Part shown: piece after piece, positions 33,181 through 41,175 of the stretch
Numbering within the stretch: the stretch's first letter is position 1
How the letters are laid out: the number at the start of each line of letters is the position of its first letter
NCBI GenBank assembly: GCA_951812625.1
Contig: CATOSP010000002.1
Location: 720,880 to 784,879, forward strand
From: an uncultured Dehalococcoidia bacterium
GTDB taxonomy: Bacteria > Chloroflexota > Dehalococcoidia > Lucifugimonadales > UBA3495
Reading direction: 5' to 3'
DNA: 64,000 nucleotides
Made by a program: the position numbers and the translations under genes
The notes under the pieces: generated by a model
What the model saw: only the letters and a program-made list of their open reading frames with translations
Database searches by the model: none
What the model was told of the DNA's origin: nothing

Positions 33181-33384
33181 TCAGGGCGCAGACCTCTGCT
33201 CTGCCCGTTGCTTCCGCTCGGCAATGGCTTGGCCGACTTTGGTGCCGACTACGCTCCCCAGCCCTCCACCTATGACCCCGCCGATGGCACCAGATATGAC
33301 GCTGAATCCCCCAAGTGCGATTCCGGCGACCACAGCGCCGATGATGATTCCGATTGCGATTCCAACCCATCTTCCGACCTTCAT
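33181..33384 (-). CDS. glycine-zipper small membrane protein (67 aa)
   Basis: AGGAGGG RBS 5 nt upstream of the ATG on the minus strand. GxxxG-rich helices (GIAIGIIIGAVVAGIALGG, GAIGGVIGGGLGSVVG) are typical of the glycine-zipper membrane protein class. Confidence 0.7.
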   Translation of the reverse strand: MKVGRWVGIAIGIIIGAVVAGIALGGFSVISGAIGGVIGGGLGSVVGTKVGQAIAERKQRAEQRSAP

Positions 33385-33509: not shown

Positions 33510-33538
33510 TTGACACTATTCACCATTCCGACTACCAT
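33510..33538 (+). promoter_or_regulatory. sigma70-like promoter candidate (TTGACA-N17-TACCAT)
   Basis: A perfect -35 TTGACA at 33510-33515, a 17-nt spacer, then TACCAT at 33533-33538 (GATAAT follows immediately). It lies in an AT-rich intergenic region upstream of gene 33787. Confidence 0.3.
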
Positions 33539-33631
33539 GATAATGAACATCAATCTCACCCATAGTAACGAACACAGATTGTCTTCGGTCTGACGTATGC
33601 CGATACCGGAATCTAGTCGTCAGACTATCGG

Positions 33632-33659
33632 TTGTCTTCCAGACTAGCCCTTGTATAAT
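33632..33659 (+). promoter_or_regulatory. sigma70-like promoter candidate (TTGTCT-N16-TATAAT)
   Basis: A perfect TATAAT at 33654-33659 preceded by TG, with TTGTCT at 33632-33637. It lies ~130 nt upstream of ATG 33787. A nearby 8-bp inverted repeat gtctgacg/cgtcagac could be an operator. Confidence 0.35.
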
Positions 33660-33786: not shown

Positions 33787-34389
33787 ATGGGTCCTGTAGA
33801 ACTATTCACAACTACTGTAGCTATCACCTTTGACCCGATACAGCCACGGCCCTTGGCCCAAGAGTCGCTTCAAGAGTTTATGAGAACTCCGTTAACTGTG
33901 TCCCAAGGACTAGATGGGTCTACGGTAGTTACCAGTAATCGGGACCAAGTGGCGGTTTCACTATGGAACAACAAGATAGACGTTAGGGTGATCGGTGATT
34001 CTGTTGACGCGGCAGCGACCAAGGTGCCACAAGTTCTGCTGTCCTTCTTGAAAATCCTCCCCGAACTGAAGATAAGGTCATATGGGATCAACTTCTTGTT
34101 CGAGTCTTCGTCTGATGCAGGACCTGTTTGGCTCGGGGAGACATTCCTAAACCAAGCCCTCAGGGAACTAGGACCGGGCCTCTCCACCGACAACGTGAAG
34201 TTCTCGTTTGAGAACCATCCCAAGCTACAAACCGTCGTGTTGCAAATCGGCGGCGGGGCGAAGCTCATCGTGAACACCAACGCTAGTCAGCAGGCTACTG
34301 ATCTACCTAATGGAGAATCTCTTGGTAGCGATATTTCCTCTCAGCATGAATTCATGATGACATTGCTGAAGGGATGGGGATTTGCGTAG
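33787..34389 (+). CDS. hypothetical protein (200 aa), low-G+C island
   Basis: Clean ORF with balanced composition in an AT-richer region. It is coupled to the next gene (stop 34387-34389, next ATG 34391). No family recognised. Confidence 0.65.
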   Translation: MGPVELFTTTVAITFDPIQPRPLAQESLQEFMRTPLTVSQGLDGSTVVTSNRDQVAVSLWNNKIDVRVIGDSVDAAATKVPQVLLSFLKILPELKIRSYGINFLFESSSDAGPVWLGETFLNQALRELGPGLSTDNVKFSFENHPKLQTVVLQIGGGAKLIVNTNASQQATDLPNGESLGSDISSQHEFMMTLLKGWGFA

Positions 34390-34390
34390 G

Positions 34391-35536
34391 ATGTTTTTTT
34401 TCTTCGCCAATTCTGAGACCGACGATTCCTCTACCCCGTTCAGGGTGGGATCAGGCCATGAACCGTCCCGTGGCAGAGATGACATGGTTCTCCTAGTAGA
34501 GCGTGGTCATCATATCAGCAGTATGGTCGCGCCCCCTAATCCCGAACAGGGTATTGGTAACGTTGCAGTGGTAGCTGGAAGTTTCCCGTTGACACATCCT
34601 ATCAAGGTTGGGGATCTCCAATTAATGGGCGTTGAACCATCGGATATGTATGGGCACCAGCAGTGGACCAATCCTTGGTTTCGACCCAGTATAGATCGCA
34701 CCCCCGCCGCTAACTGGTCGATGTCTCGAATGCAGCTCGGTGTGATGGAGCCTGTCGTCGAGGTCGTGATGGGCGAGATTGGCGACCAGCCATACAGCTA
34801 CTTCAAGCCACATACTGGCCGAATGCTGGAATTGTCCACTTCGTCGTCCACTGGGGTTGCTTGGTCGCCTGAAGATGTCCAGGAGTTCCACTTAGACCTT
34901 GCGCTCGTAGCGCCGAGTGATGACACCGTTCGCTTCGATAACCGGATGTTCGATATGGTCGCCCCACCTCCCACTCCCACAATTGACTTATCTGAGGAAG
35001 TCCAGGAGTTCCACTTAGACCTTGCGCTCGTAGCGCCGAGTGATGACACCGTTCGCTTCGATAACCGGATGTTCGATATGGTCGCCCCACCTCCCACTCC
35101 CACAATTGACTTATCTGAGGAAGTCCAGGAGTTCCACTTAGACCTTGCGCTCGTAGCGCCGAGTGATGACACCGTTCGCTTCGATAACCGGATGTTCGAT
35201 ATGGTCGCCCCACCTCCCACTCCCACAATTGACTTATCTGAGGAAGTCCAGGAGTTTTCTCGAGGATTCAGAGGAGTAGCGCCAAGCGATGATACTGTTC
35301 GCATGGCAGGTCGGATTGTCGACGCAGCCCGCATTCAAGAGCTTGTGGCGGAGTTCTATGTAGACGATTCCGATGGCTCGTTCGGTATCATGTTGAGATT
35401 GCCGAACCGCTTGCTACTGTTGGCTGAACTGTCAATTGATGGGACTTTGTCTGGTGGGACCTACAACGATGTGGAGGGAACCCAGGTCGAGTTCTTGGCC
35501 AAGACTACTGTGGAACAGATAACCAGCTTATTCTAG
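34391..35536 (+). CDS. hypothetical protein with three perfect 41-aa tandem repeats (start uncertain: ATG 34391 or 34484)
   Basis: ATG lies 1 nt after the upstream stop and is followed by a T8 run (34394-34401). The repeat EVQEFHLDLALVAPSDDTVRFDNRMFDMVAPPPTPTIDLSE occurs three times, plus a degenerate fourth copy. Confidence 0.65.
   Translation: MFFFFANSETDDSSTPFRVGSGHEPSRGRDDMVLLVERGHHISSMVAPPNPEQGIGNVAVVAGSFPLTHPIKVGDLQLMGVEPSDMYGHQQWTNPWFRPSIDRTPAANWSMSRMQLGVMEPVVEVVMGEIGDQPYSYFKPHTGRMLELSTSSSTGVAWSPEDVQEFHLDLALVAPSDDTVRFDNRMFDMVAPPPTPTIDLSEEVQEFHLDLALVAPSDDTVRFDNRMFDMVAPPPTPTIDLSEEVQEFHLDLALVAPSDDTVRFDNRMFDMVAPPPTPTIDLSEEVQEFSRGFRGVAPSDDTVRMAGRIVDAARIQELVAEFYVDDSDGSFGIMLRLPNRLLLLAELSIDGTLSGGTYNDVEGTQVEFLAKTTVEQITSLF
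34874..35242 (+). repeat. three 123-bp tandem repeats, perfect from the second codon on
   Basis: Unit boundaries at 34874, 34997 and 35120 (exact 123-bp period). Copies 2 and 3 are identical, and copy 1 differs only in its first codon (gat vs gaa). A diverged partial copy follows to ~35300. Confidence 0.95.
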
Positions 35537-35550
35537 ATCGTCATTTGTAT

Positions 35551-36012
35551 ATGGCCCTATTGCTGAGCGACATATTGTGTCGATTCATCCGTCCTAAGGA
35601 TTGGAGCAAGGCACACAAACGACCCACTCCTCAGGCATTTAAGCAAATAGGTCTGTCCGTATGGCACAAGGGTCTATTGGACAAGCGATCAGTTCCGTTA
35701 GAAGACTTGCTTATTGGCAGCCTAGAAGGAGCGGGCCAAGCTCACCATACAGTTCAGGATTACTACAAATGCGCCGAAGAAGTGACGGAGAAGTGTAAGG
35801 ATCAACCACCTTACCCGTCTCTCTCAGTGGACATACGATGGAGTCCTGACCATGTTGAAGAGCCATGGCAACAATGGAAGGACGCTCATTTCGAGGTGGA
35901 CGTGTCGGGAGGTCCTCAGACGGATGCGTCAGAATGCTTGAAGATGTTCCGCAACCTGCTCGTGGTGAAGGCCAGAACCAAGATTCCTCCCGACCAATAT
36001 AGAGACCTGTAG
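35551..36012 (+). CDS. hypothetical protein (153 aa), low-G+C island
   Basis: ATG 35551 (TTG 35545 is an alternative) lies 12 nt after the upstream stop. Soluble, mixed-charge sequence. No family recognised. Confidence 0.6.
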   Translation: MALLLSDILCRFIRPKDWSKAHKRPTPQAFKQIGLSVWHKGLLDKRSVPLEDLLIGSLEGAGQAHHTVQDYYKCAEEVTEKCKDQPPYPSLSVDIRWSPDHVEEPWQQWKDAHFEVDVSGGPQTDASECLKMFRNLLVVKARTKIPPDQYRDL

Positions 36013-36362
36013 CTCTACCTCCGCCCTATCTTTTACGGCTAGGATTCCGAAAAAGCCACTCAGACTCAAGGGATGTGGATTCTGAGTTAGTTCCCAATCT
36101 CAGATCAATTTCATACAGGTAGTGGTTGCCCGGCTGATCACAATTAGGTATGGGAAACGCTACAGTGGCGTGGCGGTAGGTCGATGGTAGGGAGCATCTG
36201 TAGAGGTGTGGGTGGCTATCCACTTAAACAGTCCCAGCAATGATTATTCGTGCTATTCGCGGTCGCCGTGGACCACCAACCCGTCGCCGTCCCAGTACGC
36301 CATACTGTCCACAATCTCCATAGTCCGCACACTGACGGTGCAAACCCGTTGCAGCAGGTTAA

Positions 36363-37691
36363 TCACCCTTTCCTTGTGGTCCGCAAAGCGGTAGGTGTTG
36401 AACCTCTCGGCAATCGTTGGATCCCTGGGCTTCTTTTCCTTGTACTGGTCCAGCACCATTCCAGCGCCGACCGGTTCCCCAGTTGGTAACGCCAGGCGTC
36501 GGGCGGAACGCCAGTTAGAGTGGTCTTGTCGTCCAGGACGATGGCTCCCCGTTCTTTGTCAGCCCGCAGGATGGTGCGGGCTGAGTCTTCGCTTCGGTCG
36601 GTGCGCTGAAGAGGGTAGGGGTCGGCTGACTCAAACCCGATGTGCAAGTCCAGAAGCTCTTGGCCCATCCGTGCCCAGGCGTTGAAATCGCGGTACAAGG
36701 GCAGGCGCGGGAACTCTCTCAACAGGTCAACGACGTAGTCCCGGCGGTAAACTGGGTCGTGGAGGACGGCGTAGGTGTAGGCGAAAATGTCGCCTGAGCC
36801 TATTCCTTCCGTAAACATGCCTTCGAACTCAGCACCCAACTCCCGGCGGTAGTGTTCGTTGATCTGCTTCATCCCCCACTCGGTGATGTTGGTGACACGT
36901 TCACCTTCCTCGGTGTAGCAGTACAGCGGTAGGCATTGAGTGTCGCCAGTGAAGTGGTAGTCAACCAGCCTATCCGAGGCTAGCACGTAGGAGTCCTTCC
37001 CGTTGACGCAGACATTGATGACCTTGTTAAGCTGTTTCAGGTCTGGACCGAAGATTTCGTAGTGGTTCCGAGTGAGGACATCGTTCATTGTAAAGTCGGC
37101 GAAATGGTGCTTCACAACAAACGGACGGAATAGTGATTGAATGCGATGTGCCTCGCTATAGGTTATGCGGCGACCACGTTGGAACTCATTACGCAAGTCA
37201 CGGCTCCACTTGATCACTGGATTATACGTCGTGTCGCCTTTGTCTAGAGCCTCGTTGTATGAGTCTGCGAAGAACAACGCTTTGTCCCTAAGAGTGTTCA
37301 CGCTGAAGTCATACACCCAATCATCGCGGTTCGATTTTGCCGCGTTTGCGAACATCCTAAACGCAGTCCCTTGTCCGCCTCCATCACCGGCAGACTTAAC
37401 CCGCCGGTTTATGAGACTCATTAACTGTCTGAAACGGAATCTCTGAGCGGACCGATTTAGCCACTCTCCAGATTCATCGGGGGCAATCCGGTCAAAGTCA
37501 ATGTCCTCTAGGATCGCCCTCCTCAGATAGGTCAGAGTTTCTGTGGCGCGTTCCGAGTCATCTCGGCTGGAATAATGAACGCGGCACTCACCTTGCTTAG
37601 ACTTATCCCTTACAAAGAAACCGATGGCGACGCCTGTCTGTATGCCGAATACATTGTGCGTGGTCCCAGAAATCTTGGGGTTGCGCCGCAC
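36363..37691 (-). CDS. type IIG R-M enzyme, C-terminal fragment (target-recognition region)
   Basis: The frame is open upstream of the listed Met back to the junction with fragment 1. GTTHNVFGIQTGVAIGFFV and the downstream region are colinear with MTase-TRD fusions of this class. It ends in out-of-frame residues after LGNRSALEW. Confidence 0.8.
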   Translation of the reverse strand: MRRNPKISGTTHNVFGIQTGVAIGFFVRDKSKQGECRVHYSSRDDSERATETLTYLRRAILEDIDFDRIAPDESGEWLNRSAQRFRFRQLMSLINRRVKSAGDGGGQGTAFRMFANAAKSNRDDWVYDFSVNTLRDKALFFADSYNEALDKGDTTYNPVIKWSRDLRNEFQRGRRITYSEAHRIQSLFRPFVVKHHFADFTMNDVLTRNHYEIFGPDLKQLNKVINVCVNGKDSYVLASDRLVDYHFTGDTQCLPLYCYTEEGERVTNITEWGMKQINEHYRRELGAEFEGMFTEGIGSGDIFAYTYAVLHDPVYRRDYVVDLLREFPRLPLYRDFNAWARMGQELLDLHIGFESADPYPLQRTDRSEDSARTILRADKERGAIVLDDKTTLTGVPPDAWRYQLGNRSALEWCWTSTRKRSPGIQRLPRGSTPTALRTTRKG

Positions 37692-37746
37692 GTCCGAACC
37701 TAGGTCGAGAATGAATATGTCCGAGAACTCCGTGGCGGCGACTTTT

Positions 37747-39351
37747 CTAAACCCATCGTCCTGTCGAGCTTCTTAGGTAGGCGCGGTTGGTAACGAAAGC
37801 GATTATCCCGTCGTCATCCAACCTGTCCGATGCCCAACGCAGGAAGCGCTTGTACATATCGTACTGGTGGGTCTTTTGGGCGTTGCTTCGGGAGATGTAT
37901 GTCTCGCGGATTCGCCTATCAATCTCCGGGTACGGACGGTTAGGGTTAAATTCGTTCCAGTTGGTCTGGCTGTCGTTGTAAGGTGGGTTGCCGATGATGA
38001 CGCTGATGGGCTTCTCGTTCTGCTCCTGGACACGGACCCAATTCTCTACGGACACTGCGCCCAGGTCCAGCGTTCCTTGCCGCTGCACCGCGCCGCCGGT
38101 GGCACCGGCCTGCTGCCAGCCCATGTTGTCCAGCGTGTCCACGAAGCACAGATTGGGGAACTCTAGGTAGCGGCCGGTCCGCTCCTTGTACGTGTACTCG
38201 ATGTTCAGGTTGGCGATGTAGTAAGGGAGGATCGCTACCTCGTTGGCGTGAATCTCATGGCGGTACTTGCGCTCCAGCCTATCCTCCGGAAGGTACTCGA
38301 TGAGGCTGGTTACGAATGTGCCCGTACCGGTGGCTGGGTCGAGAATCTGTACATGGTCGTCGGCCAAGGTGCGTCCGAAGTGCTTCCGCAGCAGATAGTC
38401 GACACCTCGGATGATGAAGTCCACCACCTCGTTGGGAGTGTAGACGACCCCGAGGCGGTCTGCGGCGGCTGGGTTGTACGCCTTATAGAAGTCCTCATAG
38501 ATCGCCTTCAGGAACTTCTGCTTTTCCGCAAAGTCAGATATGTCGTAGGCGGCTCGGCCAATTGCGCCGTAGTAGGTCAATAGCCGATCGATGGTTTCCC
38601 TGCGAGCGTCGCCGGTGAAGAAAGTCTCCTCCAGCTTGCTCAGTTGGCTGGCGATGTTGTTCTCCCTGTGGAACTGGTCCTCGCTAAACACCCGCAGGAA
38701 GATATCCTCAGTGAGGATATGCTGGAGCAGCATCTCCCGCACGTCCTCGGGGGTTACAGCGGGGCCGATACTCTGTCGGCACAGGTCGAGGAAGTCAGCG
38801 GTAGCAACCTGATAGTCCGGGTTCCGAGCCTCGGCAGTCTCCACAGTCTGACGCAGGTTCTGGAGCACTGCGGGCAGGTCTGCCTTGAACTGTTCCTGCG
38901 CTGCACGGAACTCTTCGATGTTGGGAAGTTCATAGTCCAGGAAGTGGCGGATGAGCCTGTCAAGCTCGCTAGGGCGGGTCATGTCCACCCGCATCGCCAC
39001 TTCCCGGTTCTGGACCAAGACGGCAATGCGGGAGTCCTCGAATAGAATGTTGTCCTGCGGATAACCCCTAGCGAACTTTTTCTGAATCTCGTCGTCTAGG
39101 TCGTCGTCGGTATCCTTGGCTTCCCAGTAACCCCGAGCCATACGTAGGGAGTCCTTGATCGTACCGTCGGGAACACCCCCGGGACCGGGGAGTTCCGGCA
39201 CCAGCACAAACCTCTCCCTGTGGCCTCGGCAATAGGCGTCCAGGCAAGTCTGGAAGGCCGACCTGATGTTCAACTCATTGCCTGAACCGCCGAACTCAAT
39301 GAGGCGGTTCAGGTCCTCGTAATACCGGTCAATGTGCGGGTATGTGGGCAT
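37747..39351 (-). CDS. type IIG R-M enzyme, N-terminal fragment (nuclease-like domain + N6-adenine methyltransferase)
   Basis: 534-codon ORF containing the PD-ExK-like motif, DPATGTGTF and NPPY. It terminates prematurely just after FVTNRAYLRSS because of a one-base frame change near 37765-37775. Confidence 0.85.
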   Translation of the reverse strand: MPTYPHIDRYYEDLNRLIEFGGSGNELNIRSAFQTCLDAYCRGHRERFVLVPELPGPGGVPDGTIKDSLRMARGYWEAKDTDDDLDDEIQKKFARGYPQDNILFEDSRIAVLVQNREVAMRVDMTRPSELDRLIRHFLDYELPNIEEFRAAQEQFKADLPAVLQNLRQTVETAEARNPDYQVATADFLDLCRQSIGPAVTPEDVREMLLQHILTEDIFLRVFSEDQFHRENNIASQLSKLEETFFTGDARRETIDRLLTYYGAIGRAAYDISDFAEKQKFLKAIYEDFYKAYNPAAADRLGVVYTPNEVVDFIIRGVDYLLRKHFGRTLADDHVQILDPATGTGTFVTSLIEYLPEDRLERKYRHEIHANEVAILPYYIANLNIEYTYKERTGRYLEFPNLCFVDTLDNMGWQQAGATGGAVQRQGTLDLGAVSVENWVRVQEQNEKPISVIIGNPPYNDSQTNWNEFNPNRPYPEIDRRIRETYISRSNAQKTHQYDMYKRFLRWASDRLDDDGIIAFVTNRAYLRSSTGRWV

Positions 39352-39681: not shown

Positions 39682-41175
39682 ATGGAGCGGCGGCGATGGA
39701 TTGGGGTGGCTGCTGTGGTTGTCGGGATCGGCGTTATCGTGTTGGCTGCGTTCTTAGCATTGAGAGTCGGGACCGAGGAGGCGAGTCCAGAGGACTTGGC
39801 ACGGCAGTGGGTTGCCGGGAGCGTGGACGCCGTGGGTGAAGATATTGCCGGCTGGATGTCGGCCGAGAATACCATCCTCAGGGAACTGGGCGGGGAGTAC
39901 GTCGAGGATCGAATCCACGATGTTATCAGGTGGGAGTATTCAACCGCCGAGCGCCGTTCGGACGGGCTGTACGACCTGACCGCGACAGCACGGGTGCGCT
40001 TCGATATTCCTGGGGGGATTGGGGAGGTCGACGTGGCAGTTCCGTGGGAGATGGTGATAGACGTGGGCACGGAGTCGGTTTCGGCACGTCCCCGGTGGAC
40101 CGGAGCGTCCCTGGGGCTCCCAGGTATCCCTGACGGCTTAGACCAAGTTAGACAGTTGGCTACGGGCGTACCAGCCATCGAAGACAGAACGCGAGGAGAG
40201 CTTCTGAAGAAGGACAGCGGTCAGACGGAGGCAACTTTGAGTCCAAGTGGCCTGTTGGGCTCCGATCCTACGCCCGCTGCCGACCAGATTGAGAAGGTCG
40301 TCGGGGTTGACGCCCCCAGCACAGCAACCCCCACTCTAGAGGGGAAACTGACTTCTGATCCTGTTTCCTGGCCCGAGGGGTCGTCATATGCGGGGTGTTT
40401 GGATGATGTTTACCTGAGAGCTGGGGACGACTACGGTATTGAGCATTGGCTACCTGCGGCGGTCTGGTACTGCCGGGGTCTTGCCCCTGTGCCAGAGGGT
40501 GGGGTTTCAAGCAGGCGGTGTGTCTTGGACCAGATGGCTGATGTTGAGAAGCGATACTCCGCCTCGGGGGAGCGGTGGGGATGGTGGTATGCGATAGCCT
40601 TCTGCAAGCCGTTGCCGTCGGCGGATGAGTTACAGGTCGTTGTTAGGTCCGGGGTCCAGGTCACAGTGTACGGAGCCTGTCTGGACAATGCATATCTCGC
40701 CAACAAAGAGCTTGTTGATAATGGAGAGGTTCTGATTGGCGTGAGTGCATGGCTGTGCCGGGACTATTTGCCCGAGCCTCCCGGAATCCACCTGCGGCGG
40801 TGTGACCTGGAGCGGGCTGGAGAAACTAAACAATTGTATCCTGAGTGGCCTGAAAGGTTGCATGACTGGCACGCCATAATGCAGTGCCTTCCCGAATGGC
40901 GTCCGAATGAAGTCCCGGGGGAGAGCCCGTACACGACCTGCTTGAGTGACGTGTACGCGCAGGTTGGAGACAGTTACGACCGTAAGGACCGGGCTATCCC
41001 GGCCGCAGTGTGGCGGTGTCAGGACCATATGCCGGAGCCCCCCGCTTTCTATAACCCTCGTTGCGAGATCAACCACCGGAGGCGGGACGAAGATTCCCAG
41101 CTAGGATGGCCGGGTGAGTTGTATGCTTGGAATGCTATTGTTCAGTGCTACCCGGCATACGGCGGTTCCCGGTAA
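39682..41175 (+). CDS. membrane-anchored/secreted protein with three ~95-aa four-cysteine repeats
   Basis: GGGGAG RBS, and an N-terminal TM/signal anchor (IGVAAVVVGIGVIVLAAFLAL). Three paralogous modules are each of the form C-L-(D/S)-(D/N)-(V/A)-Y ... W-(Y/L/R)-C ... R-C ... (F/Q)-C (YAGCLDDVYLRAGDDYG..., YGACLDNAYLANKELV..., YTTCLSDVYAQVGDSYD...). Confidence 0.7.
   Translation: MERRRWIGVAAVVVGIGVIVLAAFLALRVGTEEASPEDLARQWVAGSVDAVGEDIAGWMSAENTILRELGGEYVEDRIHDVIRWEYSTAERRSDGLYDLTATARVRFDIPGGIGEVDVAVPWEMVIDVGTESVSARPRWTGASLGLPGIPDGLDQVRQLATGVPAIEDRTRGELLKKDSGQTEATLSPSGLLGSDPTPAADQIEKVVGVDAPSTATPTLEGKLTSDPVSWPEGSSYAGCLDDVYLRAGDDYGIEHWLPAAVWYCRGLAPVPEGGVSSRRCVLDQMADVEKRYSASGERWGWWYAIAFCKPLPSADELQVVVRSGVQVTVYGACLDNAYLANKELVDNGEVLIGVSAWLCRDYLPEPPGIHLRRCDLERAGETKQLYPEWPERLHDWHAIMQCLPEWRPNEVPGESPYTTCLSDVYAQVGDSYDRKDRAIPAAVWRCQDHMPEPPAFYNPRCEINHRRRDEDSQLGWPGELYAWNAIVQCYPAYGGSR

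Follow-up and report, generated by a model that had tools for sequence, protein, structure and literature searches.

What do three tightly coupled genes that match no named family do beside a restriction-modification (R-M) gene in an uncultured Dehalococcoidia bacterium? The question is raised by a 64,000-nucleotide stretch of its genome (assembly GCA_951812625.1, contig CATOSP010000002.1, positions 720,880 to 784,879 of the forward strand), hereafter the window, for which a preliminary description made from the letters alone had proposed a novel defence or accessory cassette composed of three open reading frames (ORFs), here called genes A, B and C (Table 1). Our preferred reading, to which we give a probability of about 45%, is that the trio would be a modular intracellular conflict system of the toxin-antitoxin (TA) or abortive-infection type and a three-gene, highly diverged relative of the PADLOC candidate PDC-M32. 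The idea of a defence or accessory cassette gains from the conservation of the trio as a unit and from its defence contexts; the word "novel" has to be qualified, since PADLOC already includes a related candidate family.

Conservation of the trio and exchange of its modules

The three-gene order was kept in the L003, L004, L005/6/7, L008, L009/10 and L016 contigs, with spacers of 1-2 nt or overlaps, and also in L017, L023, L024 and L026, which come from species-representative genomes; in L012-15 the A gene had not been called and was located by tblastn. In all trio loci, the window included, adjacent genes were 1-14 nt apart or overlapped. Four homologues of A at about 60% identity and two partial homologues of B were detected, together with eleven homologues of C in a first search. 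When 400 other genomes of the phylum were searched with a profile, nine had a member of the A family (10 of 401 with the window genome), and eight of these nine further A-family genes were followed by a B-like gene of 226-313 aa and a C-like gene of 135-170 aa, overlapping or abutting. The C family itself was present in two of the 401 genomes, and a search of 40 relatives, six of which belong to the same genus, did not recover the trio. Matches in named genomes belonged to Dehalococcoidia/Chloroflexi metagenome-assembled genomes (MAGs) and to two Spirochaetia MAGs. No match was obtained for A and C in phage and plasmid collections (tblastn), nor in the phage collection for the C of L034, a trio from the phylum sample. 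Lack of conservation as a unit would have counted against the preliminary description; the unit was recovered at about a dozen loci of Chloroflexota and Spirochaetia, in addition to the eight further A-family loci. These comparisons show that the trio is conserved as a unit and that the family is sporadic, often lying in defence or mobile DNA.

Damaged single components were common among the relatives. C was N-terminally truncated in L003 and L012-15, A was uncalled or interrupted in L012-15, and the C of L025 was shortened to 82 aa and joined to the remnant of a methylase; a 1215-aa neighbour in L025 had no relative in the PDB.

Between the window and L003, A (61% identity), the C-terminal domain of B (67-73%) and C (60%) were readily compared, whereas the N-terminal half of B lying between them could not be aligned (BLASTP E 0.33). 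Between L003 and L005, A was ~80% and the N-terminal half of B 52% identical, and past a conserved 'AWPSEE' junction the C-terminal domain of B and C were replaced by unrelated sequences. This type-2 cassette takes the place of both parts in L004/5/8; narrow profiles of the two types gave hhalign probabilities of 0.25% for C and 0.2% for the B C-terminal domain. The unalignable half and the replaced cassette show that A, the N-terminal half of B, and the B C-terminal domain with C are three independently recombining modules, the last two parts always being exchanged together. More cassette types were recovered after A-family genes in L019, L012, L026 and L035-L042. At two loci (L019, 2969-6411; L012, 12337-14450, reverse strand), A-family genes precede a HEAT-repeat-like protein and a 161-165-aa protein starting 'ARKITRAKW...LSFW'.

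The C-terminal domain of B also occurs alone, as a 106-186-aa "mini-B" immediately 5' of C, in L011, L018-L022 and L025. These pairs stand in unrelated contexts, form the core two-gene unit of the system and are self-contained in the way required of type II TA modules. L019 has a complete trio that carries another cassette and, behind it, an A fragment with a mini-B and C pair; this arrangement resembles an orphan-cassette array.

In the window, the three tightly linked ORFs were borne out by the ORF list and by the homologues, which begin at the same positions and thus support the start assignments; the list offers an alternative TTG start for B at 34382. All three genes end in TAG. The A-B junction of 1 nt stood as first described, the B-C spacer being 14 nt instead of ~12 nt. 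The low-G+C island was also recovered, with a G+C content of 0.52-0.53 across 33-36 kb against 0.60-0.69 upstream. The strong promoter-like boxes did not hold up, since the two sigma-70-like sites found compare with 2.7 +/- 1.7 expected by chance in the region and therefore provide no promoter evidence. No terminator-like site was found. Judging from the sequences, A, B and C form one operon of real genes under purifying selection. None of them matched Pfam, NCBIfam, PHROGs or PADLOC (hmmscan, E<=0.1), in line with the earlier remark that no motif could be named in them. With at least 30 trio homologues scanned against the same collections, the only matches were to PDC-M32, in relatives.

Table 1. 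Features of the trio and its surroundings, in window positions.
Feature	Position	Strand	Remarks
Sigma-70-like hexamer pairs 5' of A (two)	33510..33659	+	candidate promoters
Sigma-70-like site 1	33510-33538	+	TTGACA-17-TACCAT
Sigma-70-like site 2	33632-33659	+	TTGTCT-16-TATAAT
Gene A	33787-34389	+	ORF of 200 aa
Gene B	34391-35536	+	ORF of 381 aa, counted from ATG
B N-terminal hypervariable region	34391..34876	+	not alignable with L003 homologue
Exact tandem repeat in B	34877..35256	+	123-bp period, ~3.1 copies, 41-aa unit
B C-terminal domain	35237..35536	+	~100-aa alpha+beta domain, putative partner of C
Gene C	35551-36012	+	ORF of 153 aa, counted from ATG
Type IIG / ISP-like methyltransferase-specificity gene	36253..39351	-	convergent with trio; Pfam, PADLOC; probably not part of the system

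Gene C, the two halves of B and the predicted fold of A

C exhibited the lowest ratio of nonsynonymous to synonymous substitutions (dN/dS) of all parts of the trio (0.08-0.16), the values being 0.15-0.20 for A at larger distances, 0.24-0.28 for mini-B and 0.43-1.05 for the N-terminal half of B among close relatives. Of 78 locus pairs compared, 70 had a higher conservation in C than in the B C-terminal domain (49.4% vs 40.8%), and the two diverged in a correlated manner (r = 0.82). The C family comprises 108 cluster representatives among 1.84e9 proteins. Across 77 members, H113 was invariant and C10, R11, F12, W18, P25, F30, S36, W109, A112 and R134 were near-invariant, a pattern that points to enzymatic activity or to a highly specific binding site. 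The AlphaFold2 (AF2) model of C, with a predicted local distance difference test (pLDDT) score of 90.6, is an alternating beta/alpha protein for which Foldseek found no fold match in the PDB or BFVD (best E 0.5 and 0.045, template modelling (TM) score <0.35, and <0.3 in the PDB). The same comparison rejected the ART, GNAT, nucleotidyltransferase and RNase folds. Sequence and profile searches of the PDB with alignments A1, A2 and A4 gave nothing significant, and no described toxin or antitoxin family was found for the trio in Pfam, NCBIfam and PADLOC, C being also devoid of a sequence or fold match in the PDB.

The C-terminal domain of B is the putative cognate partner domain of C. Its alignment (A7, 16 loci) exhibits invariant F16, G19, D53, D55, G56, L64 and G78. 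The N-terminal half is hypervariable and is separated from this domain by the perfect tandem repeats that had already been noticed in the middle gene. The period-123 identity is unbroken over the whole tract, and the repeat is in frame. Its unit and the first helix of the C-terminal domain (EEVQEF..APSDDTVR) are old paralogues, and the unit was triplicated recently, the copies being very recent since they are 100% identical. Other lineages have unrelated repeats at the same position of B (~38 aa x4 in L016; 'GEA.G.AGVTIS.GGFF' x1-3 in L003/4/5/8), so that variation in the length of B appears to be tolerated or selected. A T8 tract (34393-34400) directly follows the ATG of B (MFFFF...). Together with the exact 123-bp triplication, it might permit phase or length variation of the protein.

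For A, the profile and structure searches advised in the preliminary description were fruitful in part: they gave a known topology for this protein, no solved fold for C and no family match. The AF2 model of A (pLDDT 86.3) has a duplicated S1-H1-S2-S3-S4-S5-H2 topology, as in the TATA-binding protein (TBP), and all of its 35 Foldseek matches in the PDB with E<1e-3 were TBPs or AdoMetDC. The best match was 1ais_A (E 5.5e-6, probability 1.0). The TM scores of the TBP matches were 0.35-0.44 only, hence the arrangement of the lobes differs from that of TBP. The model thus predicts a two-lobed TBP-like fold for A, which would be the conserved hub protein of the system. The TBP-domain superfamily includes TBP itself, the N-terminal domain of RNase HIII and a TBP-like domain fused to RNase LS-type HEPN toxins; its members bind DNA or RNA/DNA hybrids, and one of them is a nucleic-acid-binding add-on in an RNase LS-type toxin (PMC3710099). 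A resembles this superfamily in its duplicated lobe topology but differs in the placement of the lobes, has no sequence similarity to it and is a separate protein rather than part of a fusion; its nucleic-acid binding is putative. We take these domains as a lead for the role of A rather than as a result.

We also compared A with TIGR04255, a family described as "sporadically distributed protein", which is of similar size (~250 aa) and likewise sporadic. The identification of A as a TIGR04255 protein was rejected at the sequence level, as none of 11 A-family members matched the corresponding hidden Markov model (HMM), and hhalign gave a probability of 0.07% with three members. In two genomes of the same order (L029 in G115 and L030 in G055), a TIGR04255 gene is nonetheless followed by genes with 'DNGNLRAVW..', a B-like C-terminal motif, and 'GLSVNW...SH', a C-like one. 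The architecture of these operons appears analogous to that of the trio, although A and TIGR04255 share no sequence similarity.

A putative remote link to PDC-M32 and a possible mechanism

The PDC set consists of 145 phage defence candidates, chosen because members of them had turned up inside BREX, DISARM or type I R-M loci (Payne et al., bioRxiv 10.1101/2024.01.29.577857). In L034, the C-terminus of B matched PDC-M32A (5.7e-32) and C matched PDC-M32B (1.4e-43). The PDC-M32A HMMs (PDLC04574-6) recovered the B-like proteins of L034, L038, L037 and L040 with E values from 5.7e-32 to 0.02, three of them weakly. In the window, neither B against PDLC04574-6 nor C against the PDC-M32B HMMs (PDLC04578-81) gave a match at E<=0.1, and there was none in the whole genome G000 against PDLC04579. 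The C of L034 and the type-2 C of the closest trio relatives of the window are homologues (BLASTP 1e-12); since the former matches both the latter and PDC-M32B, the type-2 cassette of L004/5/8 belongs to the PDC-M32 family. A PDC-M32B model also matched the control genome of Thermotoga maritima, so that a family member is available in a cultured species.

The cassette of the window is linked to this family by profile comparison. The C alignment A4 and the PDC-M32B-like set A11 were aligned by hhalign end to end and colinearly over 116 columns (probability 56%, E 1.1e-4), and the B C-terminal domain alignment A7 and the PDC-M32A-like C-termini A12 over 66 columns (36%, E 3.9e-4). These values came from the broad alignments only, the narrow type 1 and type 2 profiles having given the fractions of a percent mentioned above. 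The C alignment pairs R with R, AF with AF, LSV with LSV and AH with AH, the motif order R-F-S-H-L..A being common to both sets. We thus consider the window cassette as a possible, highly diverged and remote relative of PDC-M32.

The two systems have several features in common. PDC-M32 consists of two co-directional, abutting or overlapping genes for proteins of ~375 aa (PDC-M32A) and ~125 aa (PDC-M32B), compared with 381 and 153 aa for the window genes B and C, which are 14 nt apart. In both, a ~300-380-aa protein ends in a ~100-aa conserved beta-rich domain and is accompanied by a 125-155-aa partner with the order R...AF...LSV...AH...L..A. The window system differs in its additional upstream gene A with a predicted TBP fold, whereas the canonical PDC-M32 pairs of Rhodococcus and Rhizobium plasmids (377+143 and 373+140 aa) have neither a separate A gene nor a detectable A-like region. 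It also lies beside a broken type IIG R-M gene instead of being embedded in a BREX, DISARM or type I R-M locus, although some of its relatives abut R-M genes. PDC-M32 is itself a bioinformatic prediction.

The preferred reading, that of a TA-type or abortive-infection system, supposes the following division of labour. C would be a small, enzyme-like effector of new predicted fold, with an Arg, a Ser and a His conserved in the family. The C-terminal domain of B, ~100 aa long, would bind C and hold it inactive, the pair being a self-sufficient core; the joint exchange of the two and their correlated divergence are indirect evidence for such binding. A and the hypervariable, repeat-bearing N-terminal half of B would be an add-on that senses or binds a trigger, perhaps nucleic acid or a product of the phage, and sets C free or switches it on. 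We infer these effector and keeper roles from the gene order, the stand-alone pair, the stronger constraint on C and its catalytic-looking invariant residues.

Type II TA modules, in which multidomain antitoxins with swappable partners form hyperpromiscuous networks (PMC10440598), are the closest frame for this mechanism. As in these modules, there is a small two-gene core with the putative antitoxin upstream and a sporadic, mobile distribution; the downstream gene is the more conserved and enzyme-like one, the partner domains move as units and single genes often decay. Differences are the lack of a known toxin or antitoxin fold or family in the trio, an upstream partner without recognisable DNA-binding domain, and the attachment of a third gene with a predicted TBP fold and of a hypervariable repeat region; the toxicity of C is putative.

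Genomic contexts and rival explanations

About two thirds of the trio loci adjoin R-M genes, McrBC/Mrr fragments, Shedu/Dnd, TA genes or transposases, so that homologues were not found mainly outside defence or mobile contexts, a finding that the preliminary description had said would speak against it. The neighbours are MORC-like ATPases and a transposase in L003, an McrBC fragment, BrnA and PaREP1 in L004/L008, and Mrr-DEAD, an Eco57I fragment, HsdR and transposases in L005/6. In L012-15, they are the ISP-like R-M family of the window, Shedu (SduA_C), DndB and a resolvase. A Mod methylase lies 18 nt downstream in L023, an IS1595-type transposase was placed by eye on an upstream 324-aa ORF in L026, and L019 has PDC-S19/S20- and HmaC-like genes among its neighbours. 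The trios of L009/10, L016, L017 and L024 are in metabolic or unclear neighbourhoods, as are most of the two-gene pairs. These mixed contexts fit a mobile, selfish module and neither prove nor exclude defence.

The presence of part of the loci among metabolic genes speaks for a first rival explanation, which we judge unlikely: the trio could have no role in conflict and be ordinary cargo of mobile elements, a small operon that serves regulation or the handling of nucleic acids. An example would be a DNA-binding TBP-fold protein that, with two partners, takes part in the maintenance of the element, in the control of its replication or in transcription. This explanation agrees with the TBP-like fold of A, this fold being best known from DNA- and RNA/DNA-binding proteins (PMC3710099), and with the lack of a recognisable toxin, nuclease or NTPase domain in the Pfam, PADLOC, NCBIfam and PHROGs scans. 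Cassette swapping, a hypervariable adaptor and a sporadic distribution are, however, typical of conflict systems, as are the frequent decay of single components (L003, L012-15, L025) and the presence of relatives in a defence candidate identified by guilt-by-embedding; furthermore, the core pair moves without any element genes.

The main rival among conflict systems reverses the roles of the partners, and we find it rather improbable. In a polymorphic toxin, the variable ~100-aa tip of B would be toxic, C would be its immunity protein and A a chaperone or delivery helper, and the mini-B and C pairs would be orphan cassettes recombining at 'AWPSEE'. The fixed junction is what one would expect of such a toxin, with a conserved N-terminal part followed by a swapped C-terminal tip and a swapped small downstream gene. 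So are the several unrelated cassette types after A-family genes and the array-like arrangement of L019, where the A fragment, mini-B and C lie directly downstream of the complete trio. However, the Pfam scans revealed no signal peptide, LXG/WXG, Rhs, CDI or trafficking domain in B or in the A variants (no secretion predictor was run), and B is short. The mini-B and C pairs have their own start codons and are found by themselves in metabolic surroundings, with no full-length B nearby. Besides, it is C rather than the tip of B that is more conserved, and its invariant Arg, Ser and His would be unusual for an immunity protein.

The R-M gene downstream also had to be considered. The earlier statement that the trio converges on a type IIG R-M gene was correct as to the presence of the gene (Pfam ISP_coupler, N6_Mtase, Eco57I and Type_ISP_C; PADLOC REase_MTase_IIG), but not as to an intact one. 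Comparison with an intact 873-aa homologue of L012 (60-74% identity) shows that at least two frameshifts, around 37770-37785 and around 36459, spread its coding sequence over three frames; the last 68 aa are read in a third frame (ORF 36253-36459), the true 3' end being at position 36253. It is thus either a pseudogene or affected by assembly errors. The L012 homologue lies ~2 kb upstream of an A/B/C locus, so the same R-M family adjoins the system twice, in different orientations. Two other ORFs were observed nearby. One of 67 aa (33181-33384, reverse strand) lies immediately 5' of the trio on the opposite strand, still within the low-G+C stretch; its product, with many Gly, Ile and Val residues, is glycine-zipper-like and probably a small membrane protein. 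The other, of 497 aa (39682-41175, forward strand), combines a hydrophobic segment at its N-terminus with three Cys-containing repeats of ~85 aa ('C..D.VY...W.C'); its only match is a weak one in NCBIfam, to the N-terminus of the Rv0361 membrane protein.

That the window copy is a decaying, non-functional remnant, the triplication in B being perhaps a disabling recent slippage or an assembly artefact, is very unlikely: the frameshifted R-M gene and the identity and recency of the repeat copies speak for it, but none of the three ORFs is interrupted and all residues invariant in the family are retained, the repeat preserves the reading frame, other lineages have different repeats at the same position, and the argument concerns this copy, not the family.

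Several points weigh against the conflict system that we prefer. Functional cooperation with the R-M neighbour is unlikely in this genome because the latter is broken, and the copy may be decaying beside it even with its three ORFs intact. Defence or mobile contexts account for only about two thirds of the trio loci, and about half of the more distant loci, two-gene pairs above all, lie among metabolic genes, which fits a selfish TA module and not specifically defence. The low TM scores of A to TBP support the topology alone and not DNA binding, and comparison of the C fold with PDB and BFVD yields no enzymatic clue. Window B and C reach no PADLOC model, their remote links having hhalign probabilities of 36-56% only. 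Which partner is the toxin is suggested only by conservation and gene order, and we found no published toxicity or phage-defence test of any member, PDC-M32 included.

If this reading is wrong, the trio would be a conserved mobile operon of unknown role, meriting a family description without being remarkable. A broader proposal, which we hold to be doubtful, is that the trio, PDC-M32 and the TIGR04255-linked operons are branches of an undescribed superfamily of modular three-gene immune systems, in which a TBP-fold A and a repeat-expanding adaptor would sense infection and control interchangeable cassettes, C being a new-fold enzyme with an Arg/Ser/His active site. If the preferred reading is right, it would provide a first anatomy for the candidate PDC-M32, with a keeper-effector core, an optional sensing part made of a TBP-fold protein and a hypervariable region, and cassette exchange at a fixed junction. 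It would also extend this candidate to lineages missed by current defence-finding tools, the window genes being invisible to PADLOC, Pfam and NCBIfam. The putative effector C, with a confident predicted structure and no solved relative, may represent a new toxic or signalling activity, in a phylum, the Chloroflexota, whose immune repertoire is poorly explored.

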